The notes beneath the pieces were generated by a model. That model did no database searches. It was not told the origin of the DNA and was given only the letters and a program-made list of their open reading frames with translations. Positions 8,143-37,748 of a stretch of 64,000 nucleotides of DNA are shown in pieces. The position numbers were made by a program, and so were the translations under genes. This DNA is from a virus. Numbering within the stretch: position 1 is the first letter of the stretch; every line of letters starts with the position of its first letter. The stretch is taken from the IMG/VR virus record IMGVR_UViG_3300035703_000025, positions 1 through 64,000 of that record, one strand, 5' to 3'.

Positions 8143-8159
8143 TTTTTTCTTTGGTTTAG

Positions 8160-8233
8160 CGTTCCCGGAGGGATTCGAACCCGCGACCTAGTGCTTAGAA
8201 GGCACTTGCTCTATCCAACTGAGCTACGGGAAC
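8160..8233 (-). tRNA. tRNA-Arg(TCT)
   Basis: GTTCCCG acceptor, anticodon loop CTTCTAA, GGTTCGAATCC; no encoded CCA. Confidence 0.95.
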
Positions 8234-28633: not shown

Positions 28634-29519
28634 AGTGCAAAAGAATCGTTGTTAGTGTTGCGAGAAAAAACCAGGCCCTATTCCGATTCCTTGTCTCTTT
28701 TTCTAGCTTTGTCATATAGAGCCAAAGCCAGAAACATTGCGGTCCTTGCTAGTTCCTGTTCTTGTTTCGAGGAGCTATTGTGCACACAATCCATGTACGC
28801 ACGAACACACGACGCCAGTTTTTCTGCTTCTGATTTCAATCGGCATCATCTTCTGTTTCTTGGACTCCACCAGTCAATTGCTCCAGCGCGTCGTCTAGAA
28901 CAGCGTCTAGATCAGGGCTACTTGAGTTGTCGCTCTTCTCGTTAAGAGGATTATCGTGAACTGCGTCCAAAACGACAACGTCTCTCATGAGCCTAGCAAC
29001 TGAGTCAGTAGAGAGATTTGAGGCAACACCAAACTCATCAAACACGTATTGCCAAGTATGGAAAAGAGAACGCGGGAAAGCCTTTACAGGAACTGGCTCT
29101 CCCTTCCACATGATCAGTATTTCTGCAGTCCTGGAGTTGAACGGAGTCTCCATTCTGTCTTCGTGTCTGCTTACGTGGCTATGATTTGAACAGTAGTTCA
29201 TCCAGCCCCATTGAACTGACAAAGACCAGCCGTTCGAGAATTCCATATGAAATCCTCTGTGGCCAATCACACTCTGATCAGTTGCTGTGAAACCAGGATT
29301 CGTTCCAATTCTCATCTGCGTCTCCTTGCCTGTTTTGGCAAAGCGTTTCGTTTGCACATCTGACGTCGTTCAAAATCTTATTTAGTTTTGAGGACAAAAC
29401 AGGATCTTGTGTTTCCTCGCACAGCATCAACAGACTCATGCCTGCACGAGAAACAGAGCAAACAACTCGATCACGATCTTCGTCTGTAAGCTTTTTGGAC
29501 AACAGAAAACCTCGAAAGA

Positions 29520-29554
29520 GAAAGGGGGTGGCGCCCACATTGAACGCCACCCCC
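29520..29554 (-). terminator. intrinsic terminator
   Basis: GGGGGTGGCG/CGCCACCCCC stem with U-tract on minus strand. Confidence 0.65.
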
Positions 29555-29574
29555 ACACTACTCGTCAGCTCAAA

Positions 29575-29988
29575 TCAGGCGCGAACACCAGCAGCCTTGA
29601 GAGCTGCCGTGTTGTTCTCCACAGCCTGAGACTTCTTCTGAGCGGCGAACAGCTCAGTCACAACGTCGTCGCGGTGGATGCCACCCTTGCCAGTGGTGCC
29701 ACGTGCGATGCTAGCGAGAGCAACAGCCCTCTCCATCTGGCGATCGATAGCTGCGATAGCAGCTGCCTTCGCGGACTCACCGAAAGCACGCAGGGCCTCT
29801 TCGGTGACCGGAACGGACGCGTTCAGGAGCGACGCGACCTGGGCGTTGAGCTGAGACATGGCCTTCGACGGGGTCGCCTTGTCGTCACGGTACTCCGTCA
29901 CCAGGGTCGTCAGCTTGGCTGCGCCCTTCTTGGTGGCGTCGATGGTGCTGGAGGCGAGGGTCTCGACGGAGGTGTTGAGAGTGGTCAT
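29575..29988 (-). CDS. Ala-rich helical protein (paralog of 31181..31609)
   Basis: GTTGKGGIH..DV.TELFAA.KK...ENN..AL..AG. Confidence 0.75.
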   Translation of the reverse strand: MTTLNTSVETLASSTIDATKKGAAKLTTLVTEYRDDKATPSKAMSQLNAQVASLLNASVPVTEEALRAFGESAKAAAIAAIDRQMERAVALASIARGTTGKGGIHRDDVVTELFAAQKKSQAVENNTAALKAAGVRA

Positions 29989-30094
29989 GGTTCTAAGTCC
30001 TAAGTGAAAGTTGCGTGTGAATCAACACTAGTAACACGGTATGGTGTTGTCTCTTTGTTAGGCTTTTGAGTTGCCTAAATGAGGAGTTTGAGTG

Positions 30095-30382
30095 TCAGTC
30101 CTTGATAACGGTGAACGTAACACCGTTCATGGTGACACGAGTGATGGTGTCTTGGTTGATGTGGCGAAACTCGCCCTTCTGCATGTCGAAGACGGTGACA
30201 AGGTTCTTGGATGCAGGGTCGTACTTCATGCCCTGTCCAGTCACACCCTTCTTCACACCGCCACGACAGTTCATGTCACGCACAGATCCATCGGTGCGCT
30301 TGACGAAGGTGACTCCGAAGACCCGGCCAGACTCCTTGGCCTCTTCGATTTTCTGCACAGCCTCTGACAGAGTGATCTGCAT
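30095..30382 (-). CDS. SH3-like beta-barrel (WYL_2/DUF2693-like) protein
   Basis: FGVTFVKRTDGSVRDMNCR...VFDMQKGEFRHIN. Confidence 0.7.
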   Translation of the reverse strand: MQITLSEAVQKIEEAKESGRVFGVTFVKRTDGSVRDMNCRGGVKKGVTGQGMKYDPASKNLVTVFDMQKGEFRHINQDTITRVTMNGVTFTVIKD

Positions 30383-31180
30383 TTTGGTCTCTTTCTCAAC
30401 TCATGGAATGGGCAGGAATCTCGAAGGAACGCTCCTTCACGATACGATCCTGCCATGGCTTGTCACCGACAATCCCACTCGGGCCTGTCGAGTTCATGTA
30501 TCCCTGGATCACGATCTCGACACAGTAACCACGCGGAACGTGTCGGAAGGTCTTGCGTGCGGAATCGCAGTAGGAGTAGTAGAAGTCCTGCGCCGCAGCA
30601 AAGTTGCTGCCTGCGTACAGAACCTCACTCAGCTCAGGAATGACGCTTGAGTAAAAGAACCTACCGTTCGAGTCCCTGTGCACACGGTGCACGAGCTGCA
30701 TAACCTTGACAAACTGCATTTTGACCTCCTTTGGTCAAAGTAGACACTCCCAGTAGTGTCCAAGTCATTCACTTAGCGGACTGGGCCGCTTTGAGGAGTT
30801 TTTATGAGACCGTCACTGCTGGTATGGAAGCATGCCGTGATCTTCCATCTTCTGAACCAAGCGCTCTGCCATGATTCTGGCAGCCATGCGAATCAAGTCG
30901 TCCGGTGTCAGTCCGATCTTGTTCACGAACGTGTTCATGTCAACCAGCTCTCCTTCTGAGAGCATGTCTGGATGAGAGACTGTCATTAAGGTGTGAACAA
31001 TGATCTTGCCCAACAGAATTTCACTGCTGTTGAGCGTTGACTTGGCGTTCATCTCACGCATGGTCGCAACCATGGCAGAGATCTCTTGATTTCCTTGCTT
31101 CATGTCGCGTTCTCCTGTTCCTGGAAGGCCAGGGGTGAGGCGCTTCGGCCCCACCCCCGAACCCTCGTGCGAAAGTGAAA

Positions 31181-31609
31181 TTACGCCAGCATTCCAGCCT
31201 TGCGGAGCGCAGAGCTGTTGTTCTCCGTTGCCGTCTTCTTCGAGGCGGCAGCGAACATCTCCGTCTTCACGTCAGCGATGTGAATGCCGCCCGGACCGGT
31301 GGTTCCGTCCGGGATCTGCGACAGCTCCAGCGCTGCCTGAGCCTCCTGCTCCACGAGCGCCACGATCTGCGCCTTCAGCGCCTCGTAGCCTGCCGTGATC
31401 GCGGTGACGCGGTCCTCAGCGCTCATGGTGCGGGTGTTCAGCACCTGGCCCACGACGCGGCGCACCTGGGACACCGCAGACGACGCGGTGCCAGCCTTGC
31501 GGAACTCGACCAGGATCTCGGCCACACGCGAGGCCTCCTTCTTGGTCGCGTTGCGGGCGACGTTGGCGGGCGAGGTGGTAACGGACGACGAAACGGTGGT
31601 GTTGGACAT
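31181..31609 (-). CDS. Ala-rich helical protein (paralog of 29575..29988)
   Basis: GTTGPGGIH..DVKTEMFAA..KK..ENNSSAL.KAG. Confidence 0.75.
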   Translation of the reverse strand: MSNTTVSSSVTTSPANVARNATKKEASRVAEILVEFRKAGTASSAVSQVRRVVGQVLNTRTMSAEDRVTAITAGYEALKAQIVALVEQEAQAALELSQIPDGTTGPGGIHIADVKTEMFAAASKKTATENNSSALRKAGMLA

Positions 31610-32043
31610 TGCCAACCCTTTCTGTGTGAACTAGTCACACAATGCGTATAGATACCATCTACCTGAGACATTTCAGGAAAGAGTGGTTACTGCAGGCGCC
31701 CCTGCAGAAATTGCCCACGACCCGTTTCCGGAGCGTGGGCGCTTGTTAGTCGTTGTACAGTAAGAACAGACTGATTCCCTGCTGAATCTTGTAGATCTCC
31801 CAGTACAGATCACTCTCAGACAGACCAGTCGCAACATAACGACAGTTGTCAGAGCGATTCTGCTCTGGGCTTTCCAGAGTCCATCTCTCCTTGTCCTCGA
31901 AGCAGTTGTCACGAGTGACACTCACCCACATGTAGCCACGTGGAAGTCTAAGGCTTCTGTGAAGAGTGTTGATTGCGCGCTCCAACTCAACATGCTGAAT
32001 CACTCTGCCACAGCGAGTAGTCATCTTCTGAAGAACGCTCATG

Positions 32044-32517
32044 TCAGATCCTCTCCCACCGGTTGCGCATGCGTTCAACGGCCTCGGTGGGTACGCCGTG
32101 AACACTACCAAAGTCGTTTTGGCACTCAATCACACACACAACCCAGTCAGCGAACTCCTCACGCTTGACAAGGTCCATGTACGGTTCCATCTCCCATAGC
32201 TGAGAGAACGTGTTTGAGACTGCGACTGGCCGCAGATCGTGAAGAACGTTTCTGTAGACGTCGTTGCCATCACGATCGGTCTCACCGAAACACTCCTCCC
32301 TGTATCGGCTGCGCATTGCGTCTATCGTCCGAAGAAGACAGTCGTGATGCGCGCTTCGCAGATTGAATGGATCGAACTTGTAATCGCCGCTCACTGGATC
32401 AGTGAAGTACTGATCAGCCTCAAAGAAGCTGTCTCTGCCAACGAGACGCTTTGCGAGTGTGGACTTTCCAGATCCTGGAAGACCACGAATCAGGTACAGA
32501 GTCATGACCTTTCTCAC
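32044..32517 (-). CDS. AAA_33 / polynucleotide-kinase-like P-loop protein
   Basis: LIRGLPGSGKST, EADQYF, VSNTF, HGVP...MRNRWE. Confidence 0.85.
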   Translation of the reverse strand: MRKVMTLYLIRGLPGSGKSTLAKRLVGRDSFFEADQYFTDPVSGDYKFDPFNLRSAHHDCLLRTIDAMRSRYREECFGETDRDGNDVYRNVLHDLRPVAVSNTFSQLWEMEPYMDLVKREEFADWVVCVIECQNDFGSVHGVPTEAVERMRNRWERI

Positions 32518-32861
32518 AGCTCGCCCTCCTTCTTGCTGAAGCAGTCCCAGCTCCACCTTTTTGCGATGTACCGTGCGTCTCTCTCATTGCCGTACGCAGT
32601 CATGTTGCAGTACATCTTTCTCGCCTCATCACGCTCTTCCGTGAGGCTGCTGATCTTCTTGTCGAGGCGATCGATCACTCCCTGCATGTCGTGCATGTGG
32701 CGATCGCACACCTGCAGAGCCTCGACCGCCTTTGCTGCTTCTTCGAGCATCAGCACGAGCTTGCCCCACTTGCCCTCCTCGAACCCCGGCAGATCTTGCC
32801 CGCCCTCACGATAGTCTTTTGCGGTGGACATCAGGGCCTCAACCAATTCCTTAGCGTTCAT
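32514..32861 (-). CDS. ERDEARR-WDCF family protein
   Basis: ERDEARKMYC...WSWDCFS. Confidence 0.75.
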   Translation of the reverse strand: MNAKELVEALMSTAKDYREGGQDLPGFEEGKWGKLVLMLEEAAKAVEALQVCDRHMHDMQGVIDRLDKKISSLTEERDEARKMYCNMTAYGNERDARYIAKRWSWDCFSKKEGEL

Positions 32862-33402
32862 ACAAGCACCTTCCTTTCTGAAGGATCTAATGGCACCATG
32901 CCAAAAGAAAAAGCTCGTACCGGATTTCTCCGATACGAGCCGTTGAGCTAGAGACAGCGAACTGTCACAGGGCCGAAGCCTTTTCGCAGGACTGAAGCAC
33001 GTCCACCCTCGTATACACGATACGACAGGCTTCCGCGAAACTGATGTTCTTACGCCGCATCAGGCATCGAACTACCTGATGGATGAGCTTGTCAATGTCT
33101 GACATGGTCACTCCTTCTCGTTGAGGATCTTGTGGACCTCAGTGCTCCAGAAGAACATGTCTTCGATGATCGACTTCATGCGGAGCAAGATGAGCAAACC
33201 AATTGCAAAAATGGTGAACTCATTGACTGTCGCCTTGTGCGGGATTGGAAGCCACAGCTGAGCCACACCGTAGATGGCCCCAATAATCATCCACGCCAAA
33301 AAGAGAAACCGTGCAACGGACGAGAAGAAACGCTTGACCATAACAGATCCTTTGCCATTGGCAAAAGAGTAGAAAACCCGTGGCGTACATACCACGGGTG
33401 AA

Positions 33403-33476
33403 CACCCCAGACAGGATTCGAACCTGTAACCTGCCGCTTAGAAGGCGGCTGCTCTATCCGTTTGAGCTACTGGGGT
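33403..33476 (-). tRNA. tRNA-Arg(TCT), second copy
   Basis: ACCCCAG acceptor, GCCGC-CTTCTAA-GCGGC, GGTTCGAATCC. Confidence 0.95.
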
Positions 33477-33484
33477 TGAGGAGT

Positions 33485-33838
33485 TTAACGGTCCATGAAC
33501 GTCAGGAGCGCCTGCATCGCCTCCTCCGTGGCGCCGATGCAGAGGTCCATGGTGCGCGGCTCACCGTCGCTGTCGGGCGAGATGCCGGAGTAGTACAGCT
33601 CCTTGATCGCGTCCCACTTGTTCACGACGTCCTCGAAGTCGATGTGGCTCCCGCTGAGCGACTCCGAGAGCGCCACGATCGCGTTGCGCATCTCGCAGGG
33701 CTTGCTGTCGGACTCGTCGGCGCCCGTCATGAGCACCGCCTGGAACGCCAACTGGTCCACCTGGATCGACATCATCGCCAGGGACGTGAGCGCCGCGTTG
33801 CAGCACAGGAAGTGAACCGGGGTCTTCTTCTGACGCAT
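33485..33838 (-). CDS. hypothetical protein
   Basis: GC3-rich ORF with AGGAG SD. Confidence 0.6.
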   Translation of the reverse strand: MRQKKTPVHFLCCNAALTSLAMMSIQVDQLAFQAVLMTGADESDSKPCEMRNAIVALSESLSGSHIDFEDVVNKWDAIKELYYSGISPDSDGEPRTMDLCIGATEEAMQALLTFMDR

Positions 33839-33941
33839 AGTGAATCTCCTATGAATGGAGAGAGTGAAACCGGTGGCATACGTACCACCGTAAATCCCAC
33901 CACAGCACTTAAGCCATGGTGGGAGTGTTGAGGCTGATCAC

Positions 33942-34466
33942 TCAGCCGTGGAAACCAGTGGCCCTGCAATTCTCTAGAAACTGGAAGAGCGCTGCAGTGA
34001 CGTGCACATCACGCACACAGTAGTCCTCCATTTCCTGCGACCACTGAGACCAATCAGTGTGCTTGCAGAAGTCGCCCTTGTCCATCCCAAGGCGAAGCCC
34101 CCACGCCTCCAGACTGTGTCGCCCGCGCAACGCCTCTGGCACCCTGTACTCGTTGAACCCATTGGGGAACAAGGACTTTGCGGTTCGCCGCGTGTCGTTC
34201 AGCGTCACCCACGATGGCAGCACGATCTTGTTGTGGGTGCACATCACCCTGCGGTCGAACTCCACGTTGAACCCGATGATCTCCTGCGCGTTGAGCGCGA
34301 TGAAGTTGATCCCGCTCCGCACTTCCGACTTGCGGAACCGGAACTCCCGACCAGTGTCCACGTCCAACGCACACACGCAGTGCACGGTGTGCAGCGACGA
34401 CGTGTCTCCAGCGTTCCACGACGCCCAGTCGATTGCGTTCGTCTCCGTATCAACGACGAGTCTCAC
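33942..34466 (-). CDS. stand-alone DEDDy 3'-5' exonuclease (T7 DNA polymerase exo-like)
   Basis: ExoI DTETN, ExoII FNVEFD, HSLEAWG.RLG, ExoIII YCVRDV. Confidence 0.85.
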   Translation of the reverse strand: MRLVVDTETNAIDWASWNAGDTSSLHTVHCVCALDVDTGREFRFRKSEVRSGINFIALNAQEIIGFNVEFDRRVMCTHNKIVLPSWVTLNDTRRTAKSLFPNGFNEYRVPEALRGRHSLEAWGLRLGMDKGDFCKHTDWSQWSQEMEDYCVRDVHVTAALFQFLENCRATGFHG

Positions 34467-34886
34467 AGGACACCTCCTCTTGCGGCGAGTGCCGCCTTGA
34501 AGTCATGCACCAGAGCAGCGCTTGCCCTGCGTGCTACCGCCTCCACTCTACGAGAGGGAAGCGGACGCCACTGCTGCGCAGCGTCGCGCAGCTTCACGTG
34601 GCGATTGCGAGCCTTCACTTTTCTTGGCAGACGACCAGGAAGTGGTAGTGGTTCAGTGGGTCGCACCACTGTGTGACCGAGCGCGATTGCCCTGCGCTCT
34701 AGCCCCACATTCGGGATGCGATTACCACCCTGCTGGTCCACCTGGAAGCCATTGGCTGCAGAGCGCATGAGTGTGCGCCCTGGGGTCTTGGGCTTCGGGA
34801 ACCGGTTCATGGTCAAGCCACCGCTCCACTCGTTGGTGCAGTAGTGACCTCGTAACTGCCATTTCTGGTTCATGTGAGTCCTCCTT

Positions 34887-35267
34887 TCAGGACTGCATGC
34901 TGTTGAACTCGTTGGGGTCGTAGGCCAGGGACTCATCCACGATGGGCGCCTCGCCCCTCAGTCGCACAGACGACGGCAGCGGCACACCAGACAGGTGCTC
35001 CTTCTTTGGTTCCTCCACCGTGAACGGCTCCACCGTCACACGCGATGGCATTCGCTGAATCAGCATCATCACCTCCGTCAGCTCCTTGGTGCCCAGGTAG
35101 TCAAAGACCTCATCAGCGGACGGCTGCACGTACGTCCGATCCTCCGACACCCTGTAGAACACCTGACGAGGCCCCATCACGCTGATCTTCACGCAGTTCC
35201 AAGACGGAACAATCGTCAGGCTCCAACCATTCACCCAAGTGAACGTCGTCTGATTGCTGATCTTCAT
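34887..35267 (-). CDS. hypothetical protein
   Basis: TW.NGWSL.I motif, also seen in 28836 ORF (FSNGWSLSV). Confidence 0.6.
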   Translation of the reverse strand: MKISNQTTFTWVNGWSLTIVPSWNCVKISVMGPRQVFYRVSEDRTYVQPSADEVFDYLGTKELTEVMMLIQRMPSRVTVEPFTVEEPKKEHLSGVPLPSSVRLRGEAPIVDESLAYDPNEFNSMQS

Positions 35268-35284
35268 ACCAAGATCCTACCTTT

Positions 35285-36530
35285 CTGCACTTTACGAGTG
35301 CAAGTAACATGAGGACTTTGAAACCGCACGCTGCGGTCCATAAGTGAATGCCCACCGCAGCCAGTCAAGGCTGGGTGAGACTGTGTGCCCATAGCGGATG
35401 TTTGACCGCCAGGGTCTTGCCGGTAGATCCGGGAAACCCACAGCACAGCGTTTCCGCCGTGCTGGGGTAGGGAAACGGGGCGTGATAGCACGCTAGCCCC
35501 GCCCATCTGCAGCCATGCGTGCGGCTGCGGGTTACTGGTGACTGTGACTCGGCTACTGCAGTAGAATCGTCCGCTTACCCCACTACTGTGTAGCCTACAG
35601 ATACCGCCGTGTCATGCGTGGCTGGTCGCTAAGCAACCCCGCATGATCGACTCCCTGGTGCGCATGCCGCGCGTATGCAACCCCGTAGCCGTTGGCTACC
35701 GGACATAGCGCACCGTTGTCGTCAGCCCGGAGGCTGACCGCCCTGCAGGTTAGTGATCATCATCGGGAAGCCATCCCATCAGCGCAAGCGCGTCACTTGG
35801 GAATATGTCCGGATGATCGGATCAGTCGCCGCAGTATTGGATCTAGGTCGTGGGCATCATCGACCGTGGCATATCCTCGCTGGCTACTTATCAGGGTCAC
35901 GAGCACCCCAGCCGTAGCGAATCCGTTAGGAAACTTCGCAGCCGCTGCGTAGATATCAGACCGCCTGGCACGCACACTATCACGCCTTGACGCGATAGCG
36001 AACGCACCCACGTATCACCACAGTAGGACCGCCGCGCACCTGCCGGCCTAGCCGGGGAGCACGCGACAGCCGCCCTACGGTATCTGTCGGTGGAACTAGC
36101 CTATCGTACCCTTCGACCGTTGGCGAGCATGGCCTAGCGCTACTCGCTGTATCATATGGGTACTGTACTTCGCAGCGCCATCCATGACGCCACTACTTGC
36201 CCTGCAGGGTACAGCGTCCACACGCTGTCCGTCCCGCTCCGCTAGCGCACTACGCGCTATCGGCAGCGAAGCATCCAGGATAACCGACCTCCGTTGAGGG
36301 GACCGCTACGCTTGCGCGTCTCGGTCGGGCCGGCTCGGCGCGCCCTAGCGCACCGTTCCCGATCTTGGAAACCAGGGGTTCCGCGACTCCCGCGCTTCGA
36401 TTGCCCGTGTTCCGGGCGGCGGGGCCTCACCAGGCGCCTCTTTCGTTCCCGCCACGCGGATTCCGGTTTCGGCTCGGGGCCGAGCGGCAAGCCGCGCGCA
36501 CGGGGCGTAGGTCGCTACTAGTGCGCGGTA
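35285..36530 (-). ncRNA. candidate large structured ncRNA; boundaries approximate
   Basis: No convincing ORF; more than 20 hairpins and long-range helices; G-U pairs mostly favour the minus strand. Confidence 0.55.
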
Positions 36531-36576
36531 CTATGTAATCCCCGGCGCCCGCCGTTAGGCGGGGCCGGAGGGGGGG

Positions 36577-37053
36577 TCACTCGGCGGAGGCCAACCACGC
36601 GGCCACCTCGGACTTCGAGGGGGGCAGCGTCAGGCCGTCGATGAGGTCGCGGACGGTCAAGGCCCGGTCGGCGGCCACGCCCGGGATGCGGCCGATGGTA
36701 ACCCCATGCGGATTCGGGATGGCCGCGAGGAGGTCGACCGCGCCCGCGAACCATGCCATGGCCTCGGCGGTCCGAGCCTGGGCCTGCAGCCACGGGGCCT
36801 GGGTCGTCGGGCACGGGGTGCGGGCGTACACGCCGGCGGCCTTGGTAGCGTCGCGCATGGCCTGGGCCGGCAGGCGGCGGGCCTTGCGGCGGTCGGTGAG
36901 GTCGCCGAGGACGGCCTTGCCGAACGTGGCCGGCGCGGCCAGCACGCGGTCGAGGCCCCAATCGGCCACCTCGGTGGTGACGGTCGAGGCCGCGAGCCGC
37001 AGGACGGCAGCGGGCGAGGCGGGGGCGGTGCGGGCGGAAGACTTGGTGGGCAT
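36577..37053 (-). CDS. first gene of GC-rich arm, hypothetical
   Basis: ATG 37053 with AGGAG SD; followed by CCCGCC/GGCGGG hairpin. Confidence 0.65.
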   Translation of the reverse strand: MPTKSSARTAPASPAAVLRLAASTVTTEVADWGLDRVLAAPATFGKAVLGDLTDRRKARRLPAQAMRDATKAAGVYARTPCPTTQAPWLQAQARTAEAMAWFAGAVDLLAAIPNPHGVTIGRIPGVAADRALTVRDLIDGLTLPPSKSEVAAWLASAE

Positions 37054-37226
37054 GAGACAACTCCTGGCGCTGTGCGCCGTGGGGGGTGATTGTCGGGCAC
37101 GCGCCCGACACCAATGGGTGCTCCGGAGGGCGCGGGGGTTCACCCAATTTCACAGGCGAAAAACCAAATATGAGGACTTATTACACCAGCGAATCGTTTT
37201 TGAAAAGGCTGGGCGCTCGCCATAAA

Positions 37227-37748
37227 TCAGGACTTTGCCCAGCTTTTTCCGTTTCGTATGTTACGTATTGCGCCTGCGCCAACACCAAATCTGTCGGCAA
37301 TTACACTGTCCAGGAATCCAATCTCTATCATTTTTCGTATTTCGTCCACGTCTGCCTGGGTTAATTTGCTGAAGCGCGAGTTTTCCCCCGATATTCTGCT
37401 TAAATCTCTGTTTTCTGTCTGTTCTGCCTTTGTTGCGTACCGTAAATTGGAGAGTGCATTATTTGTTCGCACTCTGTCAATGTGGTCAACAGTCATTTCG
37501 TCTGGACACTCTCCCTGGTAAACCTCCATAACCAGTCTGTGCACAAATATCTTTTCTGCTCCTGTTCCCATGGGTTTTCTCAAAACAACAAAAGCGTAGC
37601 CTTCTGTGTCGATAAAAGGTTCAATAGTTCTAGGGGGCTTTGAGTGAATTCTGCCACGGTTAAAAACAGGCCGCGCCTTTTCACGGACGCGACCTTCGGT
37701 GCTGACTTCGTAGTTGGGGTTTCTAGCTAGGGGCTTCCAGGTTTCCAC
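37227..37748 (-). CDS. NUMOD4-HNH homing endonuclease
   Basis: ETWK...YEVSTEGRVR, VHRLV, VDHID..RTNN.LSNL, SKLT HTH tail. Confidence 0.9.
   Translation of the reverse strand: METWKPLARNPNYEVSTEGRVREKARPVFNRGRIHSKPPRTIEPFIDTEGYAFVVLRKPMGTGAEKIFVHRLVMEVYQGECPDEMTVDHIDRVRTNNALSNLRYATKAEQTENRDLSRISGENSRFSKLTQADVDEIRKMIEIGFLDSVIADRFGVGAGAIRNIRNGKSWAKS

Follow-up and report, generated by a model that had tools for sequence, protein, structure and literature searches.

The window analysed here is a 64,000-nucleotide stretch of DNA (positions 1 to 64,000 of IMG/VR record IMGVR_UViG_3300035703_000025) from an uncultured lake phage belonging to a clade with genomes of ~120 kb. The longest part of the window that has no ORF of at least 100 aa spans 35268-36576, in line with the gap noted in the preliminary description, and it holds a conserved, predicted structured RNA that runs on the minus strand from 36536 to 35301 (1236 nt in the window, 1120-1164 nt in the relatives). 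The edges of this RNA are the invariant ACATAG(T/A)AC at one end and the invariant CATGTTACTTG at the other, which are limits of conservation and not mapped transcript ends. The features of the locus are listed in the table below.

Features of the ORF-free gap and its neighbours, in window coordinates
Feature	Position	Strand	Basis or remark
Whole structured RNA	35301..36536	-	Alignments, boundaries, stop counts, 393-pair consensus fold
5' third, variable sequence with conserved structure, helices 2-18	36164..36536	-	51-74% identity to other lineages
3' two-thirds, conserved core	35297..36163	-	82-94% identity between lineages
Lineage-specific hairpin insertion, 76 nt, closed by covarying helix 35	35753..35828	-	Alignments
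Helix 23, 5' arm, 11 pairs, partner 35597-35607	36077..36087	-	Consensus fold
Helix 23, 3' arm	35597..35607	-	Consensus fold
Upstream gene, 188-aa helical protein, no known family, GC3 0.91	36577..37143	-	31-44% identity outside twin lineage
Downstream gene, 126 aa, no known family	34887..35267	-	58-73% identity between lineages
Ribosome-binding site (RBS) region of downstream gene, paired with 36089-36100 inside the RNA (helix 22)	35268..35281	-	Consensus fold
GC-rich hairpin after the stop of the upstream ORF, about 6 nt before the RNA	36542..36568	-	Read from alignments
AAAGTCCTCA at the 3' edge of the RNA, one-mismatch copy of AAACTCCTCA	35310..35319	-	Word match

The two genes that flank the RNA encode proteins for which no family was found. 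For the 188-aa protein, searches of Pfam, PHROG and the Atlas were empty and no PDB fold matched at E<=0.001; its AlphaFold model is helical with a pLDDT of 61. The 126-aa gene is preceded by a Shine-Dalgarno-like AAAGGTAGGA located 8 nt upstream of the start codon. A PDB profile search with its product returned only hits at E>=0.3, the Pfam and Atlas searches were empty, and its AlphaFold model (pLDDT 45) is unusable. Homologues of the 126-aa protein form 17 clusters with 51-97% identity, and the start codon is common to 16 of them.

The element lies inside an unusually GC-rich block beside replication genes, including a PolA-type exonuclease domain at 33942-34466. The hairpin that follows the upstream stop codon is present in each lineage with a different sequence and has no U tract after it. 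The word AAACTCCTCA occurs six times in the same orientation at gene junctions of the early arm, and one copy abuts the 5' end of a tRNA-Arg gene. The tRNA gene nearest to the element is Arg-TCT, 1.8 kb downstream, which is kept in L002 and L005 and absent from L021. No repeated promoter-like word matching the edge motifs was found.

By its stop codons and substitution pattern, the element is non-coding, in agreement with the preliminary description. Every reading frame contains 4-19 stops in all five rows of the comparative alignment, variable positions are spread as 136, 124 and 127 over the three positions modulo 3, so that no codon periodicity of substitutions is present, and the indels of 74-76 nt are not multiples of three.

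The element occupies the same position in all lineages found, which are four diverged lineages from the one clade of ~120-kb lake phages. In the alignments, the RNA core is better conserved than the adjoining protein genes, with 82-94% identity compared with 31-44% for the 188-aa protein and 58-73% for the 126-aa protein. A sub-block of the core (35467-35741) reaches 91-97% identity between lineages, and the invariant core loops include AAGCGGACG, CACGCA, AUACGC and a GAAA tetraloop. The 76-nt insertion is present only in the window and its 99% twin. It is missing from G001, G002 and L023, and an RNA-library contig that is also without it skips 35743-35834. In G003 and G004, an unrelated 109-aa ORF replaces the body of the 126-aa gene, whereas the RNA (at 99%), the RBS and the start codon stay, which favours an RNA independent of the gene behind it.

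The fold was assessed in a comparative alignment of five rows, representing four independent lineages of one phage clade, with two rows 99% alike. The consensus fold contains 393 pairs in about 50 helices, and 96.1% of its 1927 cells are paired. The check for covariation among relatives proposed in the preliminary description gave double-sided changes with pairing kept at 91 of the 393 consensus pairs, compared with 8-17 when the partner was slid and 49.1+/-4.3 in shuffles, none of which (0/500) reached 91; these counts are of sequences and not of events, and most of the changes divide the rows into the same two groups. The fold predicted from the window sequence alone behaved similarly, with 48 double-change pairs out of 438 against 9-19 in slid controls and 25.6+/-3.4 in shuffles (0/500 as many). 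By per-helix sums, 60 of the 91 double-change pairs are located in the 5' third and 31 in the 3' core. Thus, on comparative grounds, the alignment shows a single-stranded fold of a gene-sized non-coding element that is under selection, with about 50 helices kept by compensatory changes in four lineages. The element is very probably a real structured RNA.

All five local hairpins named in the preliminary description are helices of the comparative model, and each carries compensatory changes. These are the hairpins at 35721-38 (helix 36, 1 compensatory pair), 36211-28 (helix 17, 4 pairs), 35476-501 (helix 45, 1 pair), 36031-68 (helix 25, 3 pairs) and 35977-98 (part of helix 27, 8 pairs). The helices that would join the domains (22, 23 and the connection of the 5' third to the core) are invariant, as is the long-range helix 43; the joining of the domains into one molecule is therefore unproven, and the element could be made of two or more RNAs.

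The minus-strand orientation proposed earlier was borne out by several measures. RNAalifold gives an energy of -471.5 for the minus strand against -389.4 for the plus strand, and each of the five rows, folded singly, also has its lower energy in the minus-strand orientation. G-U pairs also favour this strand, with 253 G-U/U-G cells against 18 A-C/C-A cells, a count that is biased because the model was built on the minus strand. Comparison with shuffled controls, also proposed in the preliminary description, gave z = -4.08 for the fold of the 867-nt core on the minus strand (0/20 shuffles as good) and z = -1.88 on the opposite strand (1/20 shuffles as good). Of the 200-nt windows within the element, 11 of 12 scored below zero on the minus strand (mean z -1.8).

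The long-range contacts fared differently. The five complementary pairs quoted in the preliminary description and both copies of CCTGCAGG are present where it placed them. The 10-bp pair ACAGATACCG/CGGTATCTGT is contained in helix 23, which is invariant in all five rows and is hence compatible with the fold, with no compensatory change. The pair GTACCC/GGGTAC is retained as consensus helix 19, but it shows one one-sided change, leaving a C-A mismatch in two of the five rows. TGGGGTA/TACCCCA is broken in two of the five rows and was not upheld. One arm of CCGGACATA/TATGTCCGG and the arms of the supposed pseudoknot GATCATC/GATGATC fall within the 76-nt insertion (35753-35828), which is confined to the window and its twin, and neither proposal was upheld. 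No supported pseudoknot was found in the element. A candidate tertiary pairing of 36344-36350 with 35407-35413 (7 bp, 3 covarying) was rejected as not above background, the screen having yielded 4 non-nested against 8 nested candidates.

The palindromes had been proposed to drive multimerisation. Both copies of CCTGCAGG change in relatives, and no self-complementary hairpin-loop sequence kept in all lineages was seen; multimerisation by palindromes is therefore unsupported. The copy at 35742 is one strand of covarying helix 35. Inverted repeats by themselves did not confirm the earlier impression of a region tiled with helices, as the raw counts are no better than those of dinucleotide shuffles: 91 against 80.3+/-12.0 at k=7, 26 against 21.4+/-6.5 at k=8, 8 against 6.3+/-3.3 at k=9 and 2 against 1.4+/-1.6 at k=10, with 41-75 of 200 shuffles equalling the observed counts. 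Inverted-repeat counts at the shuffle level are therefore uninformative for or against structure.

The Rfam scan suggested in the preliminary description was carried out with Rfam 15 on the window and the loci of three relatives. No family matched at E<=10 except for three chance rows of 15-17 bits, which is consistent with a class not yet described. The covariance model of GOLLD (RF02032, gathering score 150 bits) matched none of the five phage records at E<=1. The ROOL model (RF03087, gathering score 99.1 bits) also matched none of the five, a result that is weak alone, the control genomes having been silent too. Neither GOLLD nor ROOL appeared among the rows of the Rfam-wide scans. The RNA is likely to belong to a family not yet described. 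Taken together with covariation far above controls, the absence of an Rfam family upholds the core of the earlier reading, namely a large structured minus-strand RNA of a class not yet described.

Several known RNAs can be compared with the element. GOLLD is also a very large, many-helix phage non-coding RNA that was first seen in lake and marine metagenomes. In the excerpted text of Kretsch et al. 2025 (PMC12286853), the 3' region of GOLLD is described as conserved and the 5' region as less so, and its size is given as 'many members exceeding 800 nt'. The present RNA likewise has a conserved 3' core (82-94%) and a variable 5' third (51-74%), but at 1.1-1.24 kb it is about 1.5x the size of GOLLD and does not match the covariance model. 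ROOL is presented in the same excerpts (PMC12286853) as a large ornate phage or prophage RNA with no known protein partner or function. The element resembles it as a large ornate RNA in a phage, but is about twice the length of the ROOL model (574 positions), with no model match and no supported pseudoknot. Like GOLLD and ROOL it is located in a phage, but the tRNA islands that often adjoin those two RNAs are matched here at best loosely, by the single tRNA 1.8 kb away. OLE, raiA, HEARO, RNase P RNA and tmRNA are large multi-helix RNAs recognised by covariation, but no match to any of them was obtained at E<=10, either in the window or in the loci of three relatives. These RNAs reside in bacterial chromosomes and are not known from the early arm of a lytic-type phage.

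The distribution of the element was surveyed in several collections. A blastn search with the region found no match among 50,697 phage records, and the genomes of 185,579 species gave 0 matches to the element. The terminase and the exonuclease domain retrieved by tblastn only distant relatives (24-37% identity) and no cultured close relative. Exact-word scans of IMG/VR with four different conserved blocks all led to one set of five contigs and no others, with one match per probe among the contigs listed. The metagenome scan yielded five contigs, two of them new. A profile search of IMG/VR with the downstream protein gave no new locus. Deeper relatives of the RNA probably exist. Thirteen lake-water runs hold 81-83% of the sampled words of the element. 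Contigs from four RNA libraries of four studies lie on 35259-36278, at a depth of about 2 and in runs chosen for holding the element, and such contigs cannot show transcription, strand, processing or timing. The uncovered parts of the 10-kb stretch and three element-only runs are not evidence, the runs having been selected with the element's own words.

The best explanation overall, to which a probability of about 0.6 is given, is that the element is transcribed with the early arm and afterwards becomes, by release or stabilisation, a stand-alone RNA acting through its fold. Transcription would proceed in the same direction as the flanking genes of the early or replication arm, an orientation that fits the expression among the first genes suggested in the preliminary description. 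The RNA is probably part of the polycistronic transcript of its neighbours, because no sigma-70-like promoter and no intrinsic terminator were called on the minus strand. From this transcript, an RNA of about 1.1-1.2 kb would be released or stabilised, bounded on one side by the hairpin after the upstream stop and the invariant ACAUAG and on the other by the invariant CCUCAUGUUACUUG tail. Its action would lie in its three-dimensional fold, which would form a particle, a scaffold or a decoy with or without a protein partner, and would not consist of coding or of simple antisense pairing. In this respect it would be similar to GOLLD and ROOL, ornate RNAs carried by phages that are likewise without a known function. 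The best guess is a GOLLD- or ROOL-like stand-alone RNA in which the 5' part varies and the 3' core is conserved, and the balance tips slightly towards action in trans rather than as a cis leader.

The strongest alternative, though an unlikely one, is a giant structured leader (5' UTR) whose fold would govern translation or stability for the 126-aa gene and for the replication genes that follow, for example by hiding or exposing the RBS. The element has the orientation of the operon and ends 34 nt before the downstream start codon with no terminator between them, and one RNA-library contig continues past the 3' edge of the RNA into the downstream gene. In the consensus fold, helix 22 also joins the RBS region (35268-35281) to the conserved segment at 36089-36100 and may thereby occlude the site. 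However, 9 of the 11 pairs of this helix never vary and none covary. A leader of this length (1.1-1.2 kb), holding about 50 helices and a core at 91-97% identity, would also be exceptional, as the bacterial and phage leaders known to us are far smaller. The exchange of the downstream gene body behind an RNA kept at 99% in G003 and G004 argues against feedback by the product of that gene.

It is very unlikely that the element is a ribozyme or a mobile RNA, whether a group I- or group II-like intron lacking an ORF or some other self-processing RNA located between genes. Phage group I and II introns are structured RNAs of 0.3-1 kb and more that often occur with HNH homing endonucleases, and the size, the multi-domain fold, the highly conserved core and the invariant sequences at both edges of the element would fit. 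An HNH/NUMOD4 homing endonuclease gene is located 0.7 kb upstream, beside a spot where relatives carry differing insertions. Unlike these introns, the element interrupts no gene. The upstream ORF is complete up to its conserved stop and the downstream ORF from its start codon, which follows an RBS; there are therefore no exons to join. No row for group I (RF00028) or group II introns was obtained at E<=10 in the Rfam scans of the window and three relatives, and the group II model RF01998 matched none of the five records, whereas controls matched in three genomes. Neither an intron-encoded protein nor a gene for a reverse transcriptase or maturase is present, the neighbouring ORFs being without an RT domain, and no domain-V-like hairpin was found by eye. 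The element is present in every lineage found, hence no empty site or intron-less allele was seen.

Even less probable is an element acting as DNA, be it an origin of replication, a packaging site or a structure formed by single-stranded DNA. It would suit the adjoining replication genes and the unusually GC-rich block, but the pairing is strand-specific in its G-U content (in a model built on this strand) and in the energies of all five rows, and only a single-stranded form of the minus strand would fit. Moreover, each probe had one match in the listed contigs, and we know of no origin or pac site resembling about 50 helices over 1.2 kb. A region without function, made of decaying gene remnants or GC-rich filler with chance helices, is hardly credible, for although inverted repeats equal dinucleotide shuffles and GC-rich sequence folds well anyway, compensatory changes are 5-10x those of slid controls where a pseudogene would lose pairing, and the core folds with z -4.08 and is more conserved than the neighbouring genes.

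Beyond the stand-alone RNA favoured above, a bolder proposal may be put forward tentatively, although it is doubtful in its full form. The element would be the first representative of a new class of giant ornate phage RNAs (1.1-1.24 kb), larger than GOLLD, and its ~870-nt core would fold as an autonomous particle, either an RNA-only multimer or cage or the core of a new ribozyme or RNP, made early in the infection of a freshwater bacterium.

To our knowledge, besides ribosomal RNA, very few bacterial or phage RNAs longer than 600-800 nt have an elaborate fold. The element is present in phages of many lake metagenomes and offers a concrete, clonable 1236-nt target, with natural variants that supply covariation. 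In the excerpts of PMC12286853, GOLLD, ROOL and OLE are each described as having given an unexpected RNA-only architecture once solved. The present element is suited to cryo-EM and chemical probing, and to asking what role giant phage RNAs play. The ORF-free gaps of uncultured phage genomes can conceal RNA genes that are missed by current annotation and by Rfam.

The largest ORF-free gap of the window is occupied by a minus-strand element that has a conserved fold and no protein gene. No longer stretch of the window is free of ORFs of at least 100 aa. The complementary pairs quoted in the preliminary description lie where they were reported, and so do both copies of CCTGCAGG. The helices in the window sequence alone are not remarkable: dinucleotide shuffles yield about as many inverted repeats of 7-10 nt (91 in the sequence vs 80+/-12, 26 vs 21+/-6, 8 vs 6+/-3 and 2 vs 1.4+/-1.6). 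Folding energy is more telling than these counts. The minus-strand z is negative in 11 of 12 200-nt windows within the element, and for the 867-nt 3' part z is -4.08 on the minus strand, a value that none of 20 shuffles matches, vs -1.88 on the plus strand.

Relatives were identified by flanking-protein searches and exact-word scans. Five contigs from IMG/VR and five from JGI metagenomes carry the element, and they reduce to four lineages plus one short fragment. These are the window with contigs G003/G004 (98.7% identity over the aligned stretch), contig G001 (86%), contig G002, which is locus L021 (72%), and locus L023, near-identical to L019 (74% to the window, 89% to G002). The element is 1236 nt long in the window and 1120-1164 nt in the relatives. 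The gene order common to all lineages is 276-aa gene, 341-aa gene, 227-aa gene, HNH endonuclease, variable insert, 188-aa family gene, element, 126-aa gene, 157-aa gene and exonuclease.

A protein-coding role is excluded because each of the five rows of the element alignment (A3) contains 4-19 stops in every frame, variable sites are spread over the three codon positions without periodicity (136/124/127), and the indels include lengths of 74-76 nt. The RNAalifold consensus contains 393 pairs in 51 helices, with standard pairs in 96.1% of 1927 cells. Changes on both sides with pairing kept occur in 91 of the 393 pairs, a count of sequences and not of events, since the independent lineages number only four and the same two groups are split by most changes. 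The controls give 8-17 pairs when the 3' partner is slid by 1-3 columns and 49.1+/-4.3 when partners are shuffled among sequences (91 reached in 0 of 500). As RNAalifold itself uses covariation, the count was redone on the minimum-energy fold of the window only, which gives 48 of 438 pairs vs 9-19 (slid) and 25.6+/-3.4 (shuffled; 0 of 500). Helix 17, for example, changes from ACAGCGU-GUGG-ACGCUGU to ACGGCCU-GUGG-AGGCCGU in G001, and helix 45 from CGGGGC...GCCCCG to CCGGGC...GCCCGG in G002/L023. The probability that the element is a real structured RNA is put at about 0.9.

Positions of the element, its parts and neighbouring features (window coordinates unless a relative's locus, L, is named)
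Feature	Position	Strand	Remarks
Whole element	36536->35301	minus	invariant ACATAG(T/A)AC (36536) to invariant CATGTTACTTG (35301)
5' third	36536-36164	minus	51-74% identity between lineages; 60 of the 91 double-change pairs
3' two-thirds	36163-35297	minus	82-94% identity; 91-97% over 35741-35467
76-nt hairpin insertion	35828-35753	minus	private to window lineage; closed by covarying helix 35
Candidate long-range pairing	36344-36350 with 35407-35413		7 bp, ~940 nt apart
ORF-free gap	35268-36576
AAACTCCTCA, plus-strand starts	16970, 26481, 28397, 30080, 30792, 33477; near-copy 35310	minus	33477 copy abuts 5' end of tRNA-Arg; near-copy at 3' edge of element
126-aa gene	34887-35267	minus
109-aa replacement ORF	L005 7879-8208		G003/G004
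174-aa exonuclease ORF	33942-34466	minus
HNH/NUMOD4 gene	37227-37748	minus
Relatives' HNH/NUMOD4 hot spot	L002 2284-4152; L019 7612-10946
tRNA-Arg(TCT)	33403-33476	minus	1.8 kb downstream of element
tRNA-Arg(TCT) in relatives	L002 7859-7932; L005 9627-9700
Second tRNA-Arg(TCT)	8159-8233
GC-rich block	29400-37200

The central idea of the preliminary description, a large structured RNA, is upheld, whereas several of its details are not. All five local hairpins are borne out, with covariation. Among the long-range pairs, the 10-bp pair and GTACCC/GGGTAC are compatible with the fold, but the others are unconserved: TGGGGTA/TACCCCA is broken in two of five rows, CCGGACATA/TATGTCCGG has an arm in the private insertion of the window lineage, and the arms of the supposed pseudoknot GATCATC/GATGATC lie in the same insertion. 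Both CCTGCAGG palindromes, proposed to mediate multimerisation, are altered in relatives, the 35742 copy being one strand of helix 35; among the hairpin loops, no self-complementary word is kept in all lineages.

The 3' two-thirds contain the invariant loops AAGCGGACG, CACGCA, AUACGC and GAAA, and the flanking proteins are less alike (31-44% identity for 188 aa, 58-73% for 126 aa). The constraint on the core is stronger than pairing alone would need. In the model the domains would be joined by helices 22 and 23 (the latter is the 10-bp pair) and by most of helix 43, all invariant and so only compatible with the fold. The element may comprise more than one RNA. A candidate pairing with three covarying positions involves UAGG (GGGA in G002/L023), a hairpin loop of the 5' part, and CCUG (UCCU in G002/L023), with a signal no higher than background in four lineages; if real, it would connect the core with the 5' third.

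Neither a sigma-70-like promoter nor an intrinsic terminator was found on the minus strand of the element, which is therefore probably transcribed by read-through from upstream genes. A GC-rich hairpin, different in sequence in each lineage, directly follows the upstream stop codon and precedes the invariant ACAUAG. The 3' edge is the invariant AAAGUCCUCAUGUUACUUG, which contains a one-mismatch copy of AAACTCCTCA. Six exact copies of AAACTCCTCA, all oriented alike, lie at gene junctions of the early arm, and TGACAC precedes two copies. Both edges could be processing signals, and AAACTCCTCA itself a processing or regulatory signal.

Six RNA libraries contain 7-15% of the element's words. Contigs of 151-263 nt from four RNA libraries (four studies) match 35259-36278 at 99-100% identity or as close variants, and one matches the insertion-less form. 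With depth ~2, possible DNA carry-over and runs picked by the element's own words, these contigs are only compatible with transcription.

The somewhat favoured reading is an RNA like GOLLD or ROOL that stands alone and acts through its fold, because of size, core conservation and independence from the identity of the downstream gene, which is swapped in G003/G004 while the element is kept. The main rival, a giant leader, is considered unlikely; in its favour, the modelled fold would pair the downstream RBS region (35268-35281) with 36089-36100 (helix 22), and one RNA-library contig spans the junction between element and gene. A ribozyme or intron is less likely. The element lies between genes and interrupts neither, the upstream ORF ending at a conserved stop and the downstream ORF beginning at a Met preceded by an RBS; 16 of 17 database homologues share that start. 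A targeted search with the group II model RF01998 gave no match in any of five phage records. A DNA-level element is also less likely: the consensus fold has an energy of -471.5 for the minus vs -389.4 for the plus strand, and minus-strand folding is better in all five sequences. The neighbouring genes are all coded on the minus strand as well. The model contains 253 G-U/U-G vs 18 A-C/C-A cells, a biased comparison, since the model itself derives from the minus strand. Chance helices, for which the inverted-repeat counts leave room, are less likely in view of the covariation.

The neighbouring genes give no clue to the element. Neither Pfam nor PHROG assigns a family to the 188-aa, 126-aa or 157-aa protein, and the structure models are poor or without a match. 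The 126-aa protein of the window lacks a CxxC...CxxC zinc-ribbon segment present in 15 of 17 database homologues (alignment A4); one homologue is labelled 'ribosomal protein L37E' in one source, probably on account of the zinc ribbon. In G003/G004, an unrelated 109-aa ORF without Pfam family replaces this gene from just past the start codon, with RNA, RBS and ATG retained. The 174-aa ORF stands alone and encodes the 3'-5' exonuclease domain of a family A (T7-like) DNA polymerase (PF01612, phrog_17 positions 672-825); as a polymerase domain does not come after it, the polymerase seems split. Directly after the HNH/NUMOD4 homing endonuclease gene, insertions differ among relatives (~1.9 kb in G001, ~3.4 kb in L016/L019, none in the window), which makes this site, 0.7 kb upstream of the element, a mobile-gene hot spot.

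The IMG/VR phage record is 125,471 bp long with direct terminal repeats; its first 64 kb form the window, and the element lies in the leftward (minus-strand) arm from a divergence point at ~40.35 kb. GC is ~40% overall and 50-77% in 29.4-37.2 kb, dropping to ~45% within 100 nt at ~37200. Genes inside this block are real (GC3 0.81-0.91 for the 188-aa, 126-aa and exonuclease genes). The block and its sharp edge suggest acquisition from, or adaptation to, a high-GC source.

Rfam 15 (4227 models) at gathering thresholds detects only four tRNAs in the window. At E<=10, the window and three relatives' loci yield three chance rows of 15-17 bits and no known family, in keeping with the new class that the preliminary description had considered possible. 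Targeted searches found GOLLD (RF02032) and ROOL (RF03087) in none of five phage records, the ROOL result alone being weak because the control genomes were silent too. GOLLD and ROOL are described by Kretsch et al. 2025 (PMC12286853) as hosted by phages and prophages, often close to tRNA islands. For GOLLD, the same paper describes a 3' region that is better conserved than the 5' region, a layout also seen in the element. The tRNA-Arg(TCT) downstream of the element is retained in two relatives' loci and missing at the corresponding place in L021; the window has a second one. Abstracts retrieved by a full-text literature search describe no such RNA.

No close cultured phage was found among 50,697 phage records, the terminase and PolA-type exonuclease domain reaching only 24-37% identity, and genomes of 185,579 species contain no copy of the element. 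Of its sampled words, 81-83% are present in each of thirteen lake-water metagenome runs. The element is a real structured RNA of very large size, which belongs to a clade of lake phages and had not been catalogued before.
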